A DNA stretch of 64,000 bases from an uncultured bacterium (GCA_963726455.1 CAVSCK010000005.1:320001-384000), one strand, 5' to 3'; positions 1 through 6,680 are shown, counted from the stretch's first letter. Notes: a model not told the origin generated them from the letters alone. Numbers and translations are program-made.

Positions 1-45
1 AGTTTGTCATATTTTCAAAACCCATACCTTTACAAGGAGTCCAGA

Positions 46-345
46 ATGAGGTGTATGAGACTGGTCGCAGTCCTGTTGGCTGCGCTATTTGTGCTGAGCG
101 CCGTCGGTCCCGTGTTTGCGGGGGATGGTCGCTTTCTTGCCCACATCGAGCAAACTTTTAGAGATCACCCCTGGCAGGATGACAACTCAAAGGACGGCAA
201 GCTCAAGGTGAAACCGTTCACGTTCGTGCTCGGTCCGTGGGTCATTAACATTAACTATTCGTTGAACTTGACCGCGCAGAAGGCGGCGCCGTCCGTCCCG
301 GCCAAAGTTAAACCGACCACAACTAAACTGGAAAAGGCCAAGTAA
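46..345 (+). CDS. Small secreted protein (99 aa), possible signalling pro-peptide
   Basis: AAGGAG at 34-39 then ATG at 46; Sec-type signal peptide MRCMRLVAVLLAALFVLSAVGPVFA; stop lies 1 nt before the next ATG. Confidence 0.8.
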   Translation: MRCMRLVAVLLAALFVLSAVGPVFAGDGRFLAHIEQTFRDHPWQDDNSKDGKLKVKPFTFVLGPWVININYSLNLTAQKAAPSVPAKVKPTTTKLEKAK

Positions 346-346
346 G

Positions 347-2551
347 ATGAGTAAAGCAGTCGCACATAGTACGGTTGCGATACTCGTCGAACTGCGTCAA
401 TACATTGACGACGGTCTCGTTCAGGAAGCTGCCCAGCGGGTAGCCGAACTGGAACAGGCCGGAATCGTCATCGATAGCAAGATTGACAAAGCTCGTTATC
501 TCGCCCTGAAAAGCGAGATACATTACCGTCGAGCCGAATACAGCAAGGCACTGTCCGAGGCACAGGAAGGATTGGCTCTGGTTAAGACAACCGGAGAGAA
601 TACCCTGATTGCCGAGCTACAGTCCACGGCTGCCCAAAGTCTTACGGAATTGGGCAGAATCGGCGAGGCGGAGAAAGTATATCGCGACCTTGTTTCGACC
701 TACCGGCGTCTGGACAACACGGTGGGAATTATCAGAAGTTTGAATCGTCTTTCCCGCGTTTATTTCATCAAGAGCCAATTCGACAAAGCGGTTGAGTGCC
801 TATTGGAGGCAGGCGATTACGCCCGCCAACATGATGACCGCAAGTGGTTGGCTAGAACCAAAGGCAACCTCGGCACCATCCTGAATCTGACTGGGGAATT
901 CCATAACGCTATCGAGTTTCTGAATGATTCGGCGGCGCTGAACAGATCGCTGGATGACCGCCTGAACCTTTGCAGAACACAGCTTTCGCTGTCGTTTGCG
1001 CAGATGCATGTACGTGATTACGCCTCAGCACAGAAGAGTCTGGCGACCGCTTCGGCGCTGATTGACAGCGGCGATTTTATTGCTGAGCGGGTCACCCTCG
1101 ACCAGTATCGTGCGCAACTGGCGCTTTTGAGATCGGATCCCGAAACCGCGTTGACATACGCGCAATCTGGGTTGCAGCGTGCGTGTGATGCTACGCGTGA
1201 GGGCGCCTCAGTCTGCCAACTTGAGCGACTGATCGCCGAGGCCTACTACAAGTCAGGCGATCTTGGGTCGGCGAAGGAATCGGCTCGTGTGGCACTTTCA
1301 CAGGCAGCCAAACTGGATCAGAAGGCCGAAATCGGCGCCTGCCATCGTTTGCTGGCACTCGTGGCTTCCGACGAAAATCGTTGTAGCGACAGCGACAAGA
1401 GCTTTGCTCAGGCAATCGCGCAATTGACGCAATGTGGCGCGCGGTTTGAGCTGGCTCTGACATATCTGGCCTGGTCGCGTCTGACCGCAGATAACAATAC
1501 CGCGTCGGAGTATCGCTATCTGGCTACCGGCATCCTGTCTTCGCTCAAGCTGTACGAGCTCTACTTGCGGCAGCCGCGGGTGAAGAGTTCTCAAGACCGC
1601 GACGAGGTAGCGCTGGTCGGCGAGGATCAGCAATTTCTCGAGCTTGTGCAACAGGCCCAGGTTTGCGCCGACAGCGATATCCCGGTGCTGTTACTCGGTG
1701 AAACGGGAAGCGGTAAAGATCAGTTCGCGCGCTTCGTACACTATCGATCAAAGCGGCGGAAACAAACCCTGGTTCAGGTAAACTGCGCGGCGATTCCGCT
1801 TGAGCTTGCCGAATCAGAACTCTTTGGCTACGAAAAAGGCGCCTTCACCAATGCGTCAGAGTCAAAGACCGGTCTGATCGAGGCAGCGGATGGCGGCACC
1901 TTGTTCCTGAACGAAATCGGTGACCTGCCGTTGAAACTACAGGCCAAGTTGCTGGCGGCATTGGAGGAGAAACGGTTCTTTAAGCTCGGCAGCACGGCCC
2001 CTCGGCGCGTCGACTTCCGTCTGGTAGCAGCGACGAACGTGGATCTGCTGCAAGCGGTGCGCGATGGAAGGTTCCGGTCGGATCTTTACTATCGACTCGC
2101 TGTCATGACGCTGAATGTCCCGAGACTGGCGGATCGTGGCAATGATGCTTTCCGGCTGTTCCGGCATTTCATGGAGCTGGAGCAGATTGAACTCGACAAT
2201 GTCAATCCGGCGATCATTAATTCTTTGCAGCAGACTTGCAGCCGCCATGATTGGCCCGGCAACGTGCGCGAGTTAAAGAATCACGTTGAACTCTTCAGCT
2301 TGACCGAGCGGCGTGATCCCGAACGTATTTGCCGCCGTCTGATCGCCAAGTTGACCCCAAAGGAAGCTGCCGTCGTCCAACCGGCAACGCAACTGACTTT
2401 GACCGAGGAGTTGGAGCTTCTGGAGAAATCCCGAATCGGCCAAGCCCTTGGCAGTTGCGGTGGAGTGATCCGGCGCGCGGCGAGTTTTCTCGGATTGCCC
2501 GAGGCAACACTGCGGTCAAAGATGAAGAAATATCGGATGAGCGCTGCGTAA
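347..2551 (+). CDS. TPR-domain sigma54-dependent enhancer-binding protein (TPR + AAA+ + Fis-type HTH)
   Basis: About 400 aa of helical TPR-like repeats; Walker A GETGSGKD, ESELFGYEKGAFTNA, GGTLFLNEIG, GRFRSDLYYRL, WPGNVRELKN; C-terminal HTH AASFLGLPEATLRSKMKKY. Confidence 0.95.
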   Translation: MSKAVAHSTVAILVELRQYIDDGLVQEAAQRVAELEQAGIVIDSKIDKARYLALKSEIHYRRAEYSKALSEAQEGLALVKTTGENTLIAELQSTAAQSLTELGRIGEAEKVYRDLVSTYRRLDNTVGIIRSLNRLSRVYFIKSQFDKAVECLLEAGDYARQHDDRKWLARTKGNLGTILNLTGEFHNAIEFLNDSAALNRSLDDRLNLCRTQLSLSFAQMHVRDYASAQKSLATASALIDSGDFIAERVTLDQYRAQLALLRSDPETALTYAQSGLQRACDATREGASVCQLERLIAEAYYKSGDLGSAKESARVALSQAAKLDQKAEIGACHRLLALVASDENRCSDSDKSFAQAIAQLTQCGARFELALTYLAWSRLTADNNTASEYRYLATGILSSLKLYELYLRQPRVKSSQDRDEVALVGEDQQFLELVQQAQVCADSDIPVLLLGETGSGKDQFARFVHYRSKRRKQTLVQVNCAAIPLELAESELFGYEKGAFTNASESKTGLIEAADGGTLFLNEIGDLPLKLQAKLLAALEEKRFFKLGSTAPRRVDFRLVAATNVDLLQAVRDGRFRSDLYYRLAVMTLNVPRLADRGNDAFRLFRHFMELEQIELDNVNPAIINSLQQTCSRHDWPGNVRELKNHVELFSLTERRDPERICRRLIAKLTPKEAAVVQPATQLTLTEELELLEKSRIGQALGSCGGVIRRAASFLGLPEATLRSKMKKYRMSAA

Positions 2552-2662
2552 CTATTCGCGTAGTGCGCGCGAACTATCGCGATTGGCGTAAGCTCCTGAA
2601 AAATCAGGAGCTTACGCAATCAAAAGCCGGTTCGCGATCAAATCGGCGCGCGAAATTCCGCG
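2546..2662. promoter_or_regulatory. Candidate upstream activator boxes (CGCG-N6-CGCG) flanking a long inverted repeat
   Basis: CGCGAACTATCGCG at 2568-2581 and CGCGAAATTCCGCG at 2649-2662, a related copy at 2546-2560, and a perfect 14-bp inverted repeat at 2586-2617. Confidence 0.45.
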
Positions 2663-2793
2663 CAAGAAAAGACAGGTGCGTTGATTTTCTGGACTCATTA
2701 ATCAAAAGGGGGCTTGCACCTCTCTTTTCTAACCCAACTTGTTACAACTGATTAAGTCCTATCCCCCAATCCAGCACGACATTCAGGTATTTC

Positions 2794-2810
2794 TTGGCAG
2801 AGCGGTTGCT
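2794..2810 (+). promoter_or_regulatory. Sigma54 (-24/-12) promoter
   Basis: TTGGCAGAGCGGTTGCT matches YTGGCACGRNNNTTGCW at all but two positions, with exact GG-N10-GC spacing; lies just downstream of an EBP gene. Confidence 0.8.
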
Positions 2811-2820
2811 TTACGTCTAT

Positions 2821-2937
2821 GCGTCGTGATAAGTAACGACAGCTCCAACACGTTTGGGATGGTACCTTTCTTCGGGAGCGAGGGTTGAGGGGATGTCGAA
2901 TCCGCCTGGTTATGCTCGGCCAGGCGGATTCAAATTT
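2821..2937 (+). ncRNA. Candidate sigma54-dependent small RNA
   Basis: Begins at the predicted +1; 5' hairpin (2823-2840), cUUCGg tetraloop (2870-2875), 12-bp stem (2898-2909/2920-2931); no + strand ORF of normal size before the convergent gene. Confidence 0.55.
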
Positions 2938-2997
2938 CGGGTAGGTCAAGAGAACTGATATCTTAATTCGCCCACTTCTCGATTACGTTCGCTTCAG

Positions 2998-3030
2998 GAA
3001 GCCCGGCCGCCAAATCGGCGGCCGGGTTTC
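2998..3030. terminator. GC-rich hairpin between convergent units
   Basis: GAAGCCCGGCCGCC-AAATC-GGCGGCCGGGTTTC. Confidence 0.75.
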
Positions 3031-3054
3031 TGTATGATTGGCAGAAAACGATCG

Positions 3055-5736
3055 TCAGATCTTGAGATTGATGCTGGCGGAAAGTGCGGCGTTAATGCGC
3101 GCCAGCGAGTCCTCAAGGTGTCCGCGCGTTATCGTGTCGAGCGTTCCGCTGGTGAGTGCATTGCTGATGGCGCCCTTCAGCGTGCGCAGGTCGACTCGAG
3201 CGAGTGTTTTGGCATCCTCAGGGACAGGTAGTTGCGTATTGGTCACCATGTCAACGAGAATGTCCAGATGGGCACGCTGCAGATTGCGGCGCATGCTGTT
3301 GACGTTCTTGCCGGCACTGACCTCCGACCAGACTGCGCGCCTGACGTCCTGAAACACATCGGTCATGGTATACACATCCTGGCCCTTGCCGTAGCGCATT
3401 TCGATATCGACCAGACGGGCAAGCGTGATCGGATTGTAGATGTGGTTGAAAGGCGTCCGCTGTACGAGCAATGCCTGGTCATGCAACGGGTAGTCGATCC
3501 TGAGAGTAGTCCAGGCCGAACCCATGAAATCGGAGTTCTTCTCGTTCTGCAGTTTGTTCAGAAACTCAGGAGAAAACTTGAATGCATCGGCTGACCAGAT
3601 GTTGTCGATAATAAACTTCATCGCCTCGCGCTGTTTGGCGGCCGGTACCGGCAAAAACGGCGATCTGCCATTCGGGTCACCGACATGGTCGCGGAAGTTT
3701 TGGATGCCGCCGATGAAGCGGGCAACGTTGTTCGCCGACAGCGAGAAACTGCTCCAGCCATAGGCAAATACCGTCCGCAGTTTGCGATAGTTCTGCCCCG
3801 GCTTTTCGTAATCCTTCTCAATCTTCGACCACAGCTCTTTGGAAAGGTCGACGCGACGTTGCCAGAATTGCAGCGGGTCGGCCGCCAAGTCGCCTTGAGT
3901 TACGTACGGGTCGATTGCGCGCGAACTGTTTCCGAAACAATCCTCGTCGGTGCCGTAGGCCAGCAGCGGTTCGGCAACGCGGGACGCGATCTTTTCCAAA
4001 CCGGCCTTCTCCGCCGGTGGATTGGCGGCGTCAAACGGCGTGTAACCATACTGGATTGTCCAGACGTCCCAGGGTCCAACCTCGGTGTTAAAGAAATCGG
4101 ACTGTGGCTTGCCGGCAGCCGCAATGTTCGGCGGCGTGTATTCCATCACCGTATTGACCACACCATTCTTGGTGACAAATGCGGGGTCGTCCAATTGCAC
4201 CTCGGTATAGACCGTCGACGCTTTGAAATTGTGCCGCAGTCCCAATGTGTGACCAACTTCATGGCAGATCATGTCGTGCAAGTACTGTTTGACATACTTC
4301 TGGGTGATGTCCGACTTGCCTTCCAGCGAGCTGCGCGCTTGCAGGAAAGCGAGCCCTGCTGCTGCCGATTTTGAGGTTTCTTCGGCGTAGTCGCAGACCT
4401 TCTCCCAATTGAAATTGCCGCCGGGAAGATCATTGATGCTGATCTTCTGAGTGCTCTGCTCGTTGGCGCTGGTGTTGCCAACCGGTTCGAGGAAGTTATC
4501 AGCGTAAGCGAAGATATTACGCAGCGTGTTGGCAACGACCATGATATCGGCGTCATAAATTTGACCGGTATACGGATTGACCCGCGACGGACCGACAGCG
4601 CCGTAAGTCTGCGCCGGCCAGATGCACCAGCGGATCACATTAAAGCGAACGTCTGCCGGATCCCAATCGGCGGTATCCGGCATCTCTTTGACGACAATCG
4701 CGTTCTTGAATCCGGCCGCTTCAAAGGCCTTATTCCAGGCCAGCACTCCTTCACGCAAGGCGTCGCGATATTCAACCGGCGTCGTGTTCTCAAGCCAGAA
4801 AACTATCGGTTCCTTCGGCTCGCTGAGAGCCGCTGCCGGATCCTGTTTTTCCAGATTCCAGTGATTGATGTAACGAACGTACGGCGTTTCAGTCGCAAGA
4901 TCGGAATAGTCCTGATAAATCGTCTGGAAAAAGCCGATCCGGTCATCCGCGGCGCGCGGATGGAAATCTCCCTGCGGTAATGCCGAAAGCGAGTAGTGAT
5001 AGGTCAGGAAGAAGCTGTACGGCGACGTCAGCGTAATGCCGCCCGCCGGCTTGTCGGAATGGTAATGCAGAACCACATCAATTTCGCTGTTCAGGGGAAA
5101 CGATTTGACAGTCCCAAAATTGGAGTTGTCCTTGTCGAATCGGAATCCCGTTTTGCCTTCGCTCCCCAGGAAATAACCAATGTTCTCGACGTCGGTGACC
5201 AGGATACTTGACGGGTCGATCAGAATTGCGCCCGAGGAATCAGGAGTGGACAGTACTACCGTGCTGCCGAGCAATCCTTGCGAAATTGAACGCGCCAGCG
5301 ATTTCGACAGTTGGGCCGTCGTGTCGGCGCGCAGACGCGCATTAGTCTGCAGAAACTGAATCTTCTTTCCGACCTGTTTGAGCTCAATCAGAAATTCATC
5401 CCGCATGACGGCGCCTTCTTGAAAAGTGCCGTCACCGGCGGTGCGCGTGATACCGCACATATACTTGGTGCCAAACTGGCTTGGCTTGACTGCCATCAGC
5501 ACCTGCAGGTCTTTCTTGTTCACATAGAAATCGAACAGACCGGGTACTTTGTCGAAGCCCTTGATCACTTCGGCAAACGGTTTCTCGGTGTCTTTCTTGC
5601 CGGCGGACGCAGCCGCGCCGACTTTCTGTTTCTTCTCTTTCTGCTTTTCCCAGTATCCCATGGCTTGAGAATTCGCAACCAGGAATAGAGAAATACCGAA
5701 TGCGAGAAGCGTCAACGTTAGCGTTAGACGACGCAT
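3055..5736 (-). CDS. Secreted zinc-dependent metalloprotease (metzincin; DUF5117/DUF4953 type)
   Basis: Signal peptide; HEVGHTLGLRHNF zinc motif; Met-turn VMEY; family motifs DDRIGFF, WNKAFEAAGF and VNPYTGQIYDADI. Confidence 0.92.
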   Translation of the reverse strand: MRRLTLTLTLLAFGISLFLVANSQAMGYWEKQKEKKQKVGAAASAGKKDTEKPFAEVIKGFDKVPGLFDFYVNKKDLQVLMAVKPSQFGTKYMCGITRTAGDGTFQEGAVMRDEFLIELKQVGKKIQFLQTNARLRADTTAQLSKSLARSISQGLLGSTVVLSTPDSSGAILIDPSSILVTDVENIGYFLGSEGKTGFRFDKDNSNFGTVKSFPLNSEIDVVLHYHSDKPAGGITLTSPYSFFLTYHYSLSALPQGDFHPRAADDRIGFFQTIYQDYSDLATETPYVRYINHWNLEKQDPAAALSEPKEPIVFWLENTTPVEYRDALREGVLAWNKAFEAAGFKNAIVVKEMPDTADWDPADVRFNVIRWCIWPAQTYGAVGPSRVNPYTGQIYDADIMVVANTLRNIFAYADNFLEPVGNTSANEQSTQKISINDLPGGNFNWEKVCDYAEETSKSAAAGLAFLQARSSLEGKSDITQKYVKQYLHDMICHEVGHTLGLRHNFKASTVYTEVQLDDPAFVTKNGVVNTVMEYTPPNIAAAGKPQSDFFNTEVGPWDVWTIQYGYTPFDAANPPAEKAGLEKIASRVAEPLLAYGTDEDCFGNSSRAIDPYVTQGDLAADPLQFWQRRVDLSKELWSKIEKDYEKPGQNYRKLRTVFAYGWSSFSLSANNVARFIGGIQNFRDHVGDPNGRSPFLPVPAAKQREAMKFIIDNIWSADAFKFSPEFLNKLQNEKNSDFMGSAWTTLRIDYPLHDQALLVQRTPFNHIYNPITLARLVDIEMRYGKGQDVYTMTDVFQDVRRAVWSEVSAGKNVNSMRRNLQRAHLDILVDMVTNTQLPVPEDAKTLARVDLRTLKGAISNALTSGTLDTITRGHLEDSLARINAALSASINLKI

Positions 5737-5996
5737 GAAGATTTCCTCCGTTGAGAGTTAGGAATTATTTCTGAGTTCTTTATTATCCAATTGGTGTCGG
5801 GTAGCTTCGCAGTCACAAGATCAAACAGTAGTAAATAGGTCTGTAAACATTCTAATGGATTCGCCGGGCAATGTCAAAGGCCATTTGAATTGCTCGTAGT
5901 GGGCACAACTACACACACTTAAATACTACGGAAAACTGGAGTATCGGTTTTGGGAAAGTGTCGCCCGTGCCGACCAGGATTTGGAGGGCAACCACC

Positions 5997-6680
5997 TTAT
6001 TTGCGGGCTGAGACGAACACAGTATCGGTTTCACAGAGTTGATCTTCGGCCATTTCGGCCCGGAACTCAGCCAAGCGCGCTGGCCAGTAGTCCCTGCGCC
6101 GGCTTTGAGAAGCAAAATGCTCCCAGGGCTCAAAGAAGTAATCAAAAGCTACGAGCTTGTCAGATCTCACTATCTCTACTGCGAATCGCATCCCGCGATC
6201 GCACAGACGCGCCGAGAGAAGTTCAGGTGTGACATATTTGAAGAGGGGATAGCCCACCTCCGCCTGCAACGCCAAGAACAGTTCTTGCGCCTTCATCGTG
6301 CGGCGTTTGGCATCGCTGCGCGGATCGTCAAGCGGCTCCTCGATCAGAACTTCTGATCGCGACACCCGAATAATCTCGTCGAGCGCCTTCTGCCATTCGA
6401 ATATGTGATGAAGTGTTGCCCTTACGACTACCAAGTCGAAGGAGTCGGCGTCGAATTTTAGTTCCCGCGCATCCATACACCGATAATCAACATTGGGATG
6501 GTCGTTTCCAGACCGGCAGCGTTGCACAAGCTGCTCAGAAACCTCAATTGCGGTAATTTGTCCACAGTGGGGGGCCAACTGCGAAGTAAACGAACCACAG
6601 CCACAGCCGATGTCAAGCACGCGATAAGGTTTGAGTTGCTTGACGCGCTCCAATAGCGGTTCATATTCTGACATGGTCAC
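5997..6680 (-). CDS. Class I SAM-dependent methyltransferase
   Basis: Motif I VLDIGCGCG; DSFDLVV...LHH; the start may be the ATG at 6674. Confidence 0.9.
   Translation of the reverse strand: MTMSEYEPLLERVKQLKPYRVLDIGCGCGSFTSQLAPHCGQITAIEVSEQLVQRCRSGNDHPNVDYRCMDARELKFDADSFDLVVVRATLHHIFEWQKALDEIIRVSRSEVLIEEPLDDPRSDAKRRTMKAQELFLALQAEVGYPLFKYVTPELLSARLCDRGMRFAVEIVRSDKLVAFDYFFEPWEHFASQSRRRDYWPARLAEFRAEMAEDQLCETDTVFVSARK

Follow-up and report, generated by a model that had tools for sequence, protein, structure and literature searches.

Candidate sigma54 circuit in a Zixibacteria family: a TPR-containing activator with an adjacent predicted small RNA and a putative exported ligand protein

The locus described here lies at the beginning of a 64,000-nucleotide stretch of DNA (the window, G000:C5:320001-384000) from the genome of an uncultured bacterium of sediment and soil assigned to Candidatus Zixiibacteriota (3.64 Mb, 5 contigs, rated 100% complete). 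On its + strand it carries, in this order, an open reading frame (ORF) of 99 aa, an ORF of 734 aa and an intergenic region of 503 bp, which is followed by a convergent Met-zincin gene on the - strand. We lean towards reading this locus as a dedicated sigma54 circuit of one Zixibacteria family, in which the small protein would be the input, the 734-aa enhancer-binding protein (EBP) the activator and a structured RNA the output. The gene order, the boxes, the promoter, the RNA and the amino acid motif discussed below, together with their conservation, emerge from sequence comparison. An earlier reading of the same DNA, made from the sequence alone, had listed a small secreted protein, an activator, repeated palindromic boxes, a sigma54 promoter and a structured transcript closed by a hairpin, and all five were recovered in place and in the same order.

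A predicted sigma54-dependent small RNA downstream of the activator gene

In order to compare the locus within its family, 19 family loci and one from another family were retrieved. Orthologs of the tetratricopeptide repeat (TPR) domain of the activator (E <= 1e-80) were present in 19/20 other family genomes, the genome without one (G006) being 89% complete and split into 660 contigs. A scan of genome contigs with the single protein gave no relatives and an alignment-based scan gave 17; a Bacteroides match from the latter scan (L069) is a TPR histidine kinase and was discarded as irrelevant. The elements on the output side of the window locus are the following.

347..2551, + strand: gene for a 734-aa TPR / sigma54-AAA+ / HTH_8 enhancer-binding protein (Pfam domains)
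2567..2582, no strand: predicted distal upstream activating sequence (UAS) box, GCGCGA-N4-TCGCGA, centre 221 bp 5' of the promoter GG
2648..2663, no strand: predicted proximal UAS box, GCGCGA-N4-CCGCGC, centre 140 bp 5' of the promoter GG
2795..2810, + strand: predicted sigma54 (-24/-12) promoter, TGGCAG-N5-TTGCT, TGGCAGAGCGGTTGCT (motif and conservation)
2821..3034, + strand: predicted sigma54-dependent small RNA (sRNA) of about 210 nt, both ends deduced (fold, conservation, promoter)
2823..2932, + strand: conserved 5' RNA domain with three helices and conserved single-stranded G-rich and loop segments (covariance model R1, 105.8 bits)
2999..3033, + strand: predicted intrinsic terminator, a GC-rich hairpin (2999-3029) followed by a T-run (sequence and fold)

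A GGCA-N6-TTGC promoter was found 234-305 nt after the activator stop codon in 20/20 loci with enough downstream sequence (L012, where a contig end cuts the locus, was left out of this count), and the pattern TGGCAN-N5-TTGCW has 33 matches on both strands of the genome. The box consensus was refined to the palindrome GCGCGA-N4-TCGCGC, from which each window copy differs by one mismatch; 0.0055 boxes are expected per shuffled intergenic region. At least one box is present in 19/19 family loci and both are present in 13/19, at fixed positions, with a box 14-16 nt after the activator stop codon in most of them. Genome-wide, 27 boxes with at most one mismatch can be observed. Two occur together only at the activator locus, which is also the only place where a box lies within 400 bp of any of the 124 TGGC[AC]-N6-TTGC sigma54 motifs of the genome. 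The two boxes are candidate UAS elements to which the activator would bind. Both the repeated palindromic boxes and the near-consensus promoter of the sequence-only reading are conserved in the family, the boxes being far above the shuffle expectation.

Downstream of the -12 element, 12 variable nucleotides precede a near-identical sequence that starts exactly at the expected sigma54 start and runs for about 110 nt. This 5' domain is far better conserved than the flanking proteins (45-68% identical), and its three modelled helices are paired in 99.1% of the cells, with a compensatory change in 3/22 pairs among 15 distinct sequences. The predicted fold of the whole RNA region (-97.6 kcal/mol, z = -5.8) was equalled in stability by 0/200 shuffles. 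When the covariance model was used as a query, a single copy of the RNA was detected in the genome of the window and in each of the 12/12 other family genomes sampled, five further copies were found in a metagenome scan, and under strict filters none was found in 138 genomes that represent 18 other families of the phylum. In 24/24 copies a GG-N10-GC promoter lies 13-16 nt before the first conserved RNA base, and 24/24 sit 3' of an orthologous activator gene, three of these genes being cut by contig ends. A terminator-like hairpin with a T-run was seen in 14/20 aligned loci (judged by eye, the hairpin scripts having missed obvious ones).

ORFs within 2821-3034 do not exceed 49 aa. A tiny ORF was considered and rejected: its ATG frame differs between the window and the orthologs while the bases stay conserved. 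A search of Rfam 15 at E <= 10 over window positions 1-6000 gave no match in the transcript region (2810-3034), and the sole two weak matches (U12 and isrK) lie at 2566-2705, far below their gathering scores. Since the ATG frame is not conserved and no Rfam family matches, the transcript is most simply read as a non-coding RNA outside the known families, in line with the earlier description of a transcript that lacks a normal-sized ORF and is closed by a hairpin. The joint conservation of promoter, boxes and RNA argues strongly for the proposal, also made in that reading, that a sigma54 activator has an adjacent sRNA as its output, and we regard it as very probable that the EBP, with sigma54, drives this RNA.

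In a second family, the orthologous EBPs of L051 (1434-1663, - strand) and L109 (reverse strand) are also followed by a sigma54 promoter. It lies about 225-235 nt after the EBP stop codon and precedes a different, terminator-ended RNA of about 125 nt. The RNAs of L051 and L109 have a G/U-rich 3' segment and the terminator in common (in L109 the region lies about 224-370 nt past the EBP stop), and R1 matches L051 weakly (E 0.025). The presence of a different RNA next to these EBPs suggests that the layout of an EBP followed by an sRNA is older than the RNA sequence of the family.

Targets of the RNA were sought in two ways. Near-matches to the complement of the G-rich segment number 32, of which only the RNA gene itself is convincing. 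When the whole molecule was paired with 4702 crude start regions, the duplexes obtained were long and without meaning (mean -56.6 kcal/mol), and no target emerged. Hfq was not found in the genome. CsrA is present, and a role of the RNA as a CsrA sponge was considered and rejected, as its approximately five GGA motifs are not kept in loops (by eye).

One more element was observed in the intergenic region.

2586..2617, + strand: 11-bp perfect hairpin between the boxes, without a T-run (sequence), possibly the 3' end of the operon mRNA

The orthologs have hairpins of other sequence at the same intergenic place, often with TAAG/CTTA at the base of the stem (by eye). In the sister genus (L035-L049), for example about 85-125 nt after the EBP stop codon, a long GC-rich inverted repeat with a T-run behind it encloses the proximal UAS, and the enhancer site therefore overlaps the likely EBP-operon terminator there.

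The TPR / AAA+ / HTH_8 activator

The activator consists of three parts.

347..1561, + strand: N-terminal TPR superhelix, about aa 1-405, predicted sensor (AlphaFold2 model)
1613..2113, + strand: sigma54-interaction AAA+ domain, aa 423-589, with the Walker B Asn522 at nt 1910-1912 (PF00158, E 6.2e-65)
2411..2533, + strand: Fis-type HTH_8 DNA-binding domain, aa 689-729 (PF02954, E 1.6e-10)

The PF00158 match covers profile positions 1-167 of 168, and TPR_12 (E 5.8e-14) and AAA_lid_14 were also matched. The orthologs are 732-738 aa long and 45-68% identical. The Walker A motif (residues 451-457), a GAFTGA-type loop in the form GAFTNA (498-503), the Walker B sequence FLNE (520-523) and the sequence RSDLYYR (577-583) can be recognized. 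The fifth position of the loop is also G, S, N or D among the other EBPs of the genome, and almost every protein of the group retains the F and T of GAFT, one having Y instead of F. The AAA+ domain and the loop, the C-terminal helix-turn-helix domain, the UAS and -24/-12 promoter downstream and the single rpoN copy of the genome (E 2.8e-58) are what is expected of an EBP, of which the genome encodes about 20.

The canonical Walker B form of EBPs, hhhhDE, is not present in the activator. Its FLNE sequence (nt 1904-1915) has Asn in place of the canonical Asp, and the same holds for 22/22 proteins of the group (19 f1 orthologs, L051 and the window protein), whereas D-E was found in the 14 other EBPs of the same genome that were caught by the same script. 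In PspF, the exchange D107A lowers Vmax from 39.5 to 0.23 per min, that is about 170-fold (PMC3419264, Table 1). A natural Asn is thus conserved at the residue whose loss cripples the PspF ATPase.

The AlphaFold2 model of residues 1-418 is a superhelix of 21 helices (mean pLDDT 92.9, pTM 0.85), whose best Foldseek matches are LGN/Pins, MalT domain III, NprR and RapI. A sequence search of the PDB with the TPR domain gave Pins (E 9.8e-19) and RapJ (E 2.1e-4), and PF17874 (TPR_MalT) is recorded for several orthologs and for the 973-aa paralog described below.

Elsewhere in the genome, outside the window, two identical 45-nt stretches at G000:C5:203489 and 205197, 1.7 kb apart, each carry a perfect TGGCAC-N5-TTGCA sigma54 promoter. 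They sit just 3' of an EBP gene with a 408-aa frame (C5:202291-202788).

The small, putatively exported protein and its HPWQD motif

The gene immediately upstream of the activator gene has the following features.

46..345, + strand: gene for the 99-aa protein that is predicted to be exported and to carry the ligand (ORF; AAGGAG 7 nt before the ATG)
46..120, + strand: predicted Sec signal peptide, aa 1-25, with cleavage after V-F-A (by eye)
166..183, + strand: codons of HPWQDD, aa 41-46 (conservation in 17 orthologs and predicted interface 39-46)

Signal peptides were judged by eye from the translations throughout. The N-terminus of the small protein has a basic n-region, a hydrophobic core and small residues at -3 and -1 of a V-F-A|G site. 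Its stop codon (343-345) is separated by one base from the activator ATG (347), and in most orthologs the two genes overlap by 4 nt. An orthologous signal-peptide ORF, encoding 99-120 aa, lies 5' of the activator gene at 21/21 loci. The co-occurrence foreseen in the sequence-only reading, of such an upstream ORF with a downstream promoter (20/20) and a structured RNA kept in the family, was in this way confirmed. A plausible sigma70-type promoter of the operon formed by the small-protein and EBP genes (TTGACA, a spacer of 16-17 nt, TATCTT; by eye) lies at about G000:C5 319845-319872, that is 128-155 nt before the first base of the window.

Apart from Met1, the only invariant columns among the 17 aligned orthologs, which are 20-43% identical, are H41, P42, W43, Q44 and D45, and D46 is conserved in at least 90% of them. 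Beyond the motif, the mature proteins continue for about 55 residues (a hydrophobic stretch and a basic tail). The small protein matches no Pfam or NCBIfam family; only 35 clusters were found among 5.8 billion proteins, none of them informatively named, and in a protein atlas the best score was 0.77, which is below the useful range.

Predicted docking of the motif in the TPR groove

The mature small protein (residues 27-99) was modelled against the TPR domain in one complex job with three controls. The alignments were supplied by ourselves and were shallow (17 rows), so that the benchmark counts for the score hold only roughly: the mark was reached by 58/80 solved complexes and by 2/110 mismatched pairs. 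The complex scored 0.63 (runs 0.79, 0.61 and 0.63) and the best of the three controls 0.01. The runs share at least 40% of their contacts, and the pLDDT of the partner is at least 37 and under 50. On the partner side, the confident interface is limited to residues 39-46 (RDHPWQDD), which are placed in the TPR groove; a co-folding of this kind had been proposed as a check in the earlier reading.

On the TPR side, the interface includes N133, N174, S214 and Q291, which are invariant in 26/26 orthologs and paralogs, and the interface columns are better conserved than the TPR domain as a whole (0.67 vs 0.48). The contact with the lowest predicted error, between TPR residue 207 and partner residue 44, covaries: a Q or N after the Trp goes with N207 in 10/10 cases, D with S207 in 14/15 and G with G207 in 1/1. 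When placed on a FastTree tree, these correspond to about two coupled changes and one uncoupled change, and the covariation is suggestive, not statistical. The covariation between peptide and TPR for which the sequence-only reading proposed a test is present at the best contact, with few changes on the tree. The more general proposal that the small secreted protein is the TPR ligand agrees with the conserved gene pairing, the modelled docking and the covarying contact, all of which are in silico evidence. From the model, we consider it probable that the HPWQD motif binds the TPR domain of the activator.

Paralogs and spread across the class

The genome contains one other strong TPR match, a 973-aa TPR-GAF-sigma54 EBP (G000:C4, about 1447215-1450500, - strand; L029). 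It has its own upstream 112-aa signal-peptide protein, with V-D-H-P-W-D-D directly after the A-x-A site; its mature N-terminus would accordingly be x-x-His, which resembles an ATCUN metal site. In a six-frame scan of the genome, HPW[QD]D together with a signal-peptide-like N-terminus was found in just two ORFs shorter than 260 aa, and these lie 5' of the only two strong TPR matches of the genome, both of which are EBPs. There is no sigma54 promoter directly downstream of the 973-aa EBP gene, and the sRNA output is therefore specific to the 734-aa group.

Another 19 TPR loci, taken from other families of the class, were then examined, and L104 was dropped for lack of a TPR match. Of the remaining TPR-EBP loci, 18/18 have a signal-peptide ORF 5' of the EBP gene in which x-P-W follows shortly behind the cleavage site; 13 of these fit PW-x-D and five are variants such as PWN, PWG and PWDN. 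A third TPR group was also noticed in eight genomes of the class (L116-L123; frames of 719-779 aa, TPR 22-25% identical). A small signal-peptide-like ORF lies upstream in 8/8 of them, and HPW is present in only 1/8 of these ORFs.

Proposed mechanism

On the output side, the activator would bind the two boxes just 3' of its own gene and activate the -24/-12 promoter, giving a structured non-coding RNA of about 210 nt that would end at the intrinsic terminator; this RNA would be the main, and perhaps the only, direct product of the activator. On the input side, the small protein would be translated just ahead of the activator, and its HPWQDD segment would lie extended in the concave TPR groove, where invariant Asn, Ser, Gln and Arg residues form a ladder beneath it, the occupancy of the groove switching the AAA+ domain. 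The route that we prefer for the ligand would comprise Sec export, cuts by signal peptidase and further proteases, and re-uptake of the fragment with the motif, for example by an OPT transporter, of which the genome has one gene. In this way the cassette would read out what becomes of its own product outside the cell or in the periplasm, by an RRNPP-like or AmpR-like logic. Transcription from 2821-2823, activation by the EBP, binding of the motif to the TPR domain (from the model), re-import, the sign of the regulation and the action of the RNA on targets are the steps that we infer.

The re-import route itself is possible but doubtful. A wider picture is just as tentative, in which HPW(Q/D)D proteins would form a Zixibacteria peptide-signal family, processed, re-imported and read by TPR-sigma54 activators, with two or three channels per genome of which one has an sRNA output. 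The "quorum-like" sensing of the sequence-only reading found no support, as the motif is nearly invariant across the class, unlike the strain-specific RRNPP pheromones; the observations agree at least equally well with a cell-autonomous readout of export or envelope proteolysis.

Several observations weigh against the mechanism as a whole or in part. The motif is in the exported part of the small protein and the TPR protein has no signal peptide. In the RRNPP systems of Firmicutes the peptides are re-imported by the oligopeptide permease Opp, and in this genome, rated complete, there are 0 matches to an Opp-type binding protein (PF00496) and 0 to a PTR2 transporter. The near-invariance of the motif across the class and in both paralogs argues against a specific diffusible signal and predicts cross-talk, and the approximately 55 further mature residues would be superfluous for a simple pheromone. 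The complex score may partly reflect memory, since LGN-peptide complexes have been solved. Given the Walker B Asn, the activator may be a poor ATPase. Finally, the existence of the RNA, its start and its end are deduced from sequence features, and the covariation in the helices is thin (close kin).

Alternative explanations

In one alternative the motif binds the TPR domain exactly as proposed, with the same evidence behind it, and nothing is re-imported: the TPR domain would recognize HPWQDD on the unexported precursor, so that working Sec export would take the ligand away, while failing export or a failing membrane would let the precursor accumulate, occupy the TPR domain and switch the sRNA. 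Such a secretion monitor would explain the near-invariance of the motif across class and paralogs, the coupling of stop and start codons by one base or an overlap, the lack of Opp and PTR2 matches, and the position of the motif two residues after the A-x-A site in the paralog group; control of envelope stress by sigma54 also has a precedent in PspF/PspA. We consider it unlikely, however, as nothing observed indicates that the precursor accumulates, the conserved signal-peptidase site and the frequent Met-zincin neighbour (13/20) fit extracellular processing at least equally well, and translation of the activator follows that of the small protein, which would normally be exported quickly. It is similarly improbable that the small protein is no ligand at all and is co-transcribed, for instance as an envelope protein adjusted by the regulon, while the TPR domain senses another protein or a metabolite, as MalT does. 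MalT domain III is indeed among the best folds (1hz4, E 3.3e-8, TMq 0.62) and TPR_MalT is assigned to several orthologs; the binding depends on a single modelling job with shallow alignments and a partner pLDDT under 50; and the upstream ORFs of the third TPR group mostly lack HPW. This explanation leaves unaccounted for, however, that the only invariant stretch of the partner is the one that docks, that no part of the TPR domain is better conserved than the docking surface, that the best contact pair covaries, and that the pairing is found at 21 + 18 loci and with both paralogs of one genome.

The remaining alternatives concern the output. The Walker B sequence, FLNE throughout the group where the 14 other EBPs have D-E, and the behaviour of PspF D107A (PMC3419264) raise the question of whether the activator can act alone: it might bind ATP and hydrolyse it poorly, serving as a repressor or placeholder at the boxes or forming mixed rings with another EBP, for which the co-dependence of HrpR and HrpS (PMC3105312) is a precedent and the approximately 20 other EBP genes offer possible partners. 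This appears quite unlikely to us. None of Walker A, the GAFT loop, the R-finger region and the lid has been lost, and the spacing of the conserved boxes and promoter is enhancer-like. Asn differs from Ala and might still bind Mg2+ or water, and the locus has no linked second EBP gene. It is highly improbable, in turn, that 2821-3034 is not a trans-acting sRNA and is instead the mRNA of a tiny protein or a cis element, for example one that insulates the Met-zincin gene from convergent transcription. A 21-codon ATG frame with a possible Shine-Dalgarno sequence exists at 2894-2959, and 25 nt separate the terminator from the convergent stop codon; yet the ATG of the orthologs is in another frame with the nucleotides nearly identical, the RNA stays with the EBP gene at the 7/20 loci that lack the Met-zincin gene, and the helices are kept by compensatory changes.

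Neighbouring genes and host

The gene that closes the locus on its 3' side is the following.

3055..5736, - strand: convergent secreted DUF5117/DUF4953 Met-zincin gene (Pfam DUF4953, E 2.6e-78)

Among 20 loci with downstream sequence, this neighbour is present in 13 and absent in 7, as judged by matching N- and C-terminal sequences by eye. The Met-zincin gene may or may not belong to the system; its product might be the protease that processes the small protein, or the gene might be a target of the sRNA. On the other side (G000:C5:317504-319799, - strand) there are an ArgZ-like/LOR-SDH gene (Pfam) and a gene that looks like an agmatinase-type gene (by eye), and the position of the ArgZ-like gene is kept in all family loci examined. 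As this upstream neighbour is divergent, the two + strand genes form a unit of their own. Omp85-family genes were found in the genome, which agrees with the earlier suggestion of a diderm host; the cell is probably diderm.

Relation to known systems

A regulatory sRNA as the main output of an adjacent sigma54 EBP is known from CbrB/CrcZ. The same arrangement is found in LuxO/Qrr of Vibrio, where the input is a cell-cell signal (PMC10162802). Both are alike to the present locus in that the adjacent sRNA is the main output of the EBP; in both, however, the input arrives through a phosphorelay from membrane kinases, whereas here sensor and EBP are one protein, next to whose gene the putative signal is encoded. 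The layout of the locus equals that of NrsZ of Pseudomonas aeruginosa, an sRNA gene located between ntrC and a tail-to-tail neighbour, with a TGGCAC-N5-TTGCW-type promoter that depends on RpoN and NtrC (PMC4253122, where the RpoN box of CrcZ is also mentioned). NtrC differs in being a phosphorylated response regulator and not a TPR protein. NrsZ itself is unrelated in sequence (the present RNA has no Rfam match) and is processed into repeats, and its host is a proteobacterium with Hfq, which was not found in the Zixibacteria genome. The features shared with sRNA genes of the NrsZ, Qrr1 and CrcZ type (a -24/-12 promoter, no ORF, an own terminator and an adjacent EBP) denote a likeness of layout and not homology.

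On the input side, the locus resembles the RRNPP systems, with which it shares an adjacent gene for a small, putatively Sec-exported propeptide, a cytoplasmic TPR receptor and a predicted groove peptide; the fold resembles NprR (5dbk_A, TMq 0.63, TMt 0.73) and RapI (4i1a_B). The five-point signature given for RRNPP systems in PMC10075063 consists of a propeptide of 10-100 aa (validated 21-50), Sec secretion, a receptor of 250-500 aa with TPRs C-terminal to the effector, binding of the mature peptide by these TPRs, and directly adjacent genes. The two genes are neighbours in the present case (one-base gap, or 4-nt overlap), and signal-peptide features were seen by eye in 21 + 18 sequences. The propeptides, at 99 aa in the window and 99-120 aa in the orthologs, are at or beyond the upper size limit, and the receptor departs from the signature, with 734 aa, an N-terminal TPR domain and the AAA+ and HTH domains C-terminal to it. 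Moreover, RRNPP outputs are an N-terminal HTH or a phosphatase, whereas the activator has an AAA+/sigma54 output. Unlike in RRNPP systems, the propeptide gene is located upstream, the motif is near the mature N-terminus and almost invariant, and the phylum is diderm.

The closest solved relatives by sequence (E 9.8e-19) and by fold (E 7.6e-10) are the TPRs of LGN/Pins with NuMA, Inscuteable and Frmpd peptides (6hc2, 3sf4, 4wnd, 5a7d). These hold extended acidic peptides along the inner groove, as is predicted for the activator TPR, but are eukaryotic polarity proteins without a fusion to a regulatory ATPase. MalT domain III (1hz4) is likewise the TPR-like sensor superhelix of a bacterial transcription activator; MalT, however, senses maltotriose, belongs to the STAND/LuxR class and not to the sigma54 EBPs, and has no partner peptide gene.

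Significance

The known inputs of sigma54 activators are phosphorylation, domains that sense small molecules, and partner proteins. PMC10075063 presents the reading of gene-encoded peptides by cytoplasmic TPR receptors as a Gram-positive speciality. The present activator joins a TPR sensor of the peptide type to a sigma54 ATPase in one protein; its putative ligand is encoded one base upstream, and the pair is conserved class-wide in a diderm candidate phylum. A literature search on TPR-EBP, RRNPP with sigma-54 and Zixibacteria small RNA gave nothing relevant, in keeping with the statement of the sequence-only reading that no system of this architecture had been described, and the pairing of an exported HPW(Q/D)D protein with a TPR-EBP appears to be undescribed in the literature searched. 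The half of the circuit that leads from the sigma54 EBP to the sRNA follows a known layout with a previously unlisted RNA family (no Rfam match). If the motif does not bind the TPR domain, what remains is a well-supported further case of an EBP with a neighbouring sigma54-dependent sRNA.

If the reading with a re-imported peptide is true, this would be the first case of RRNPP-like sensing both for a diderm phylum and for a sigma54 chassis. If the binding is real, the locus would provide a natural Walker B Asn variant for studying the tuning of EBP ATPases. Its four parts (peptide motif, TPR-EBP, two boxes and promoter) would also make up a compact and portable module leading from sensor to RNA, which could be rebuilt in E. 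coli, an organism that has sigma54, and the locus would give a handle on regulation in an uncultured phylum.

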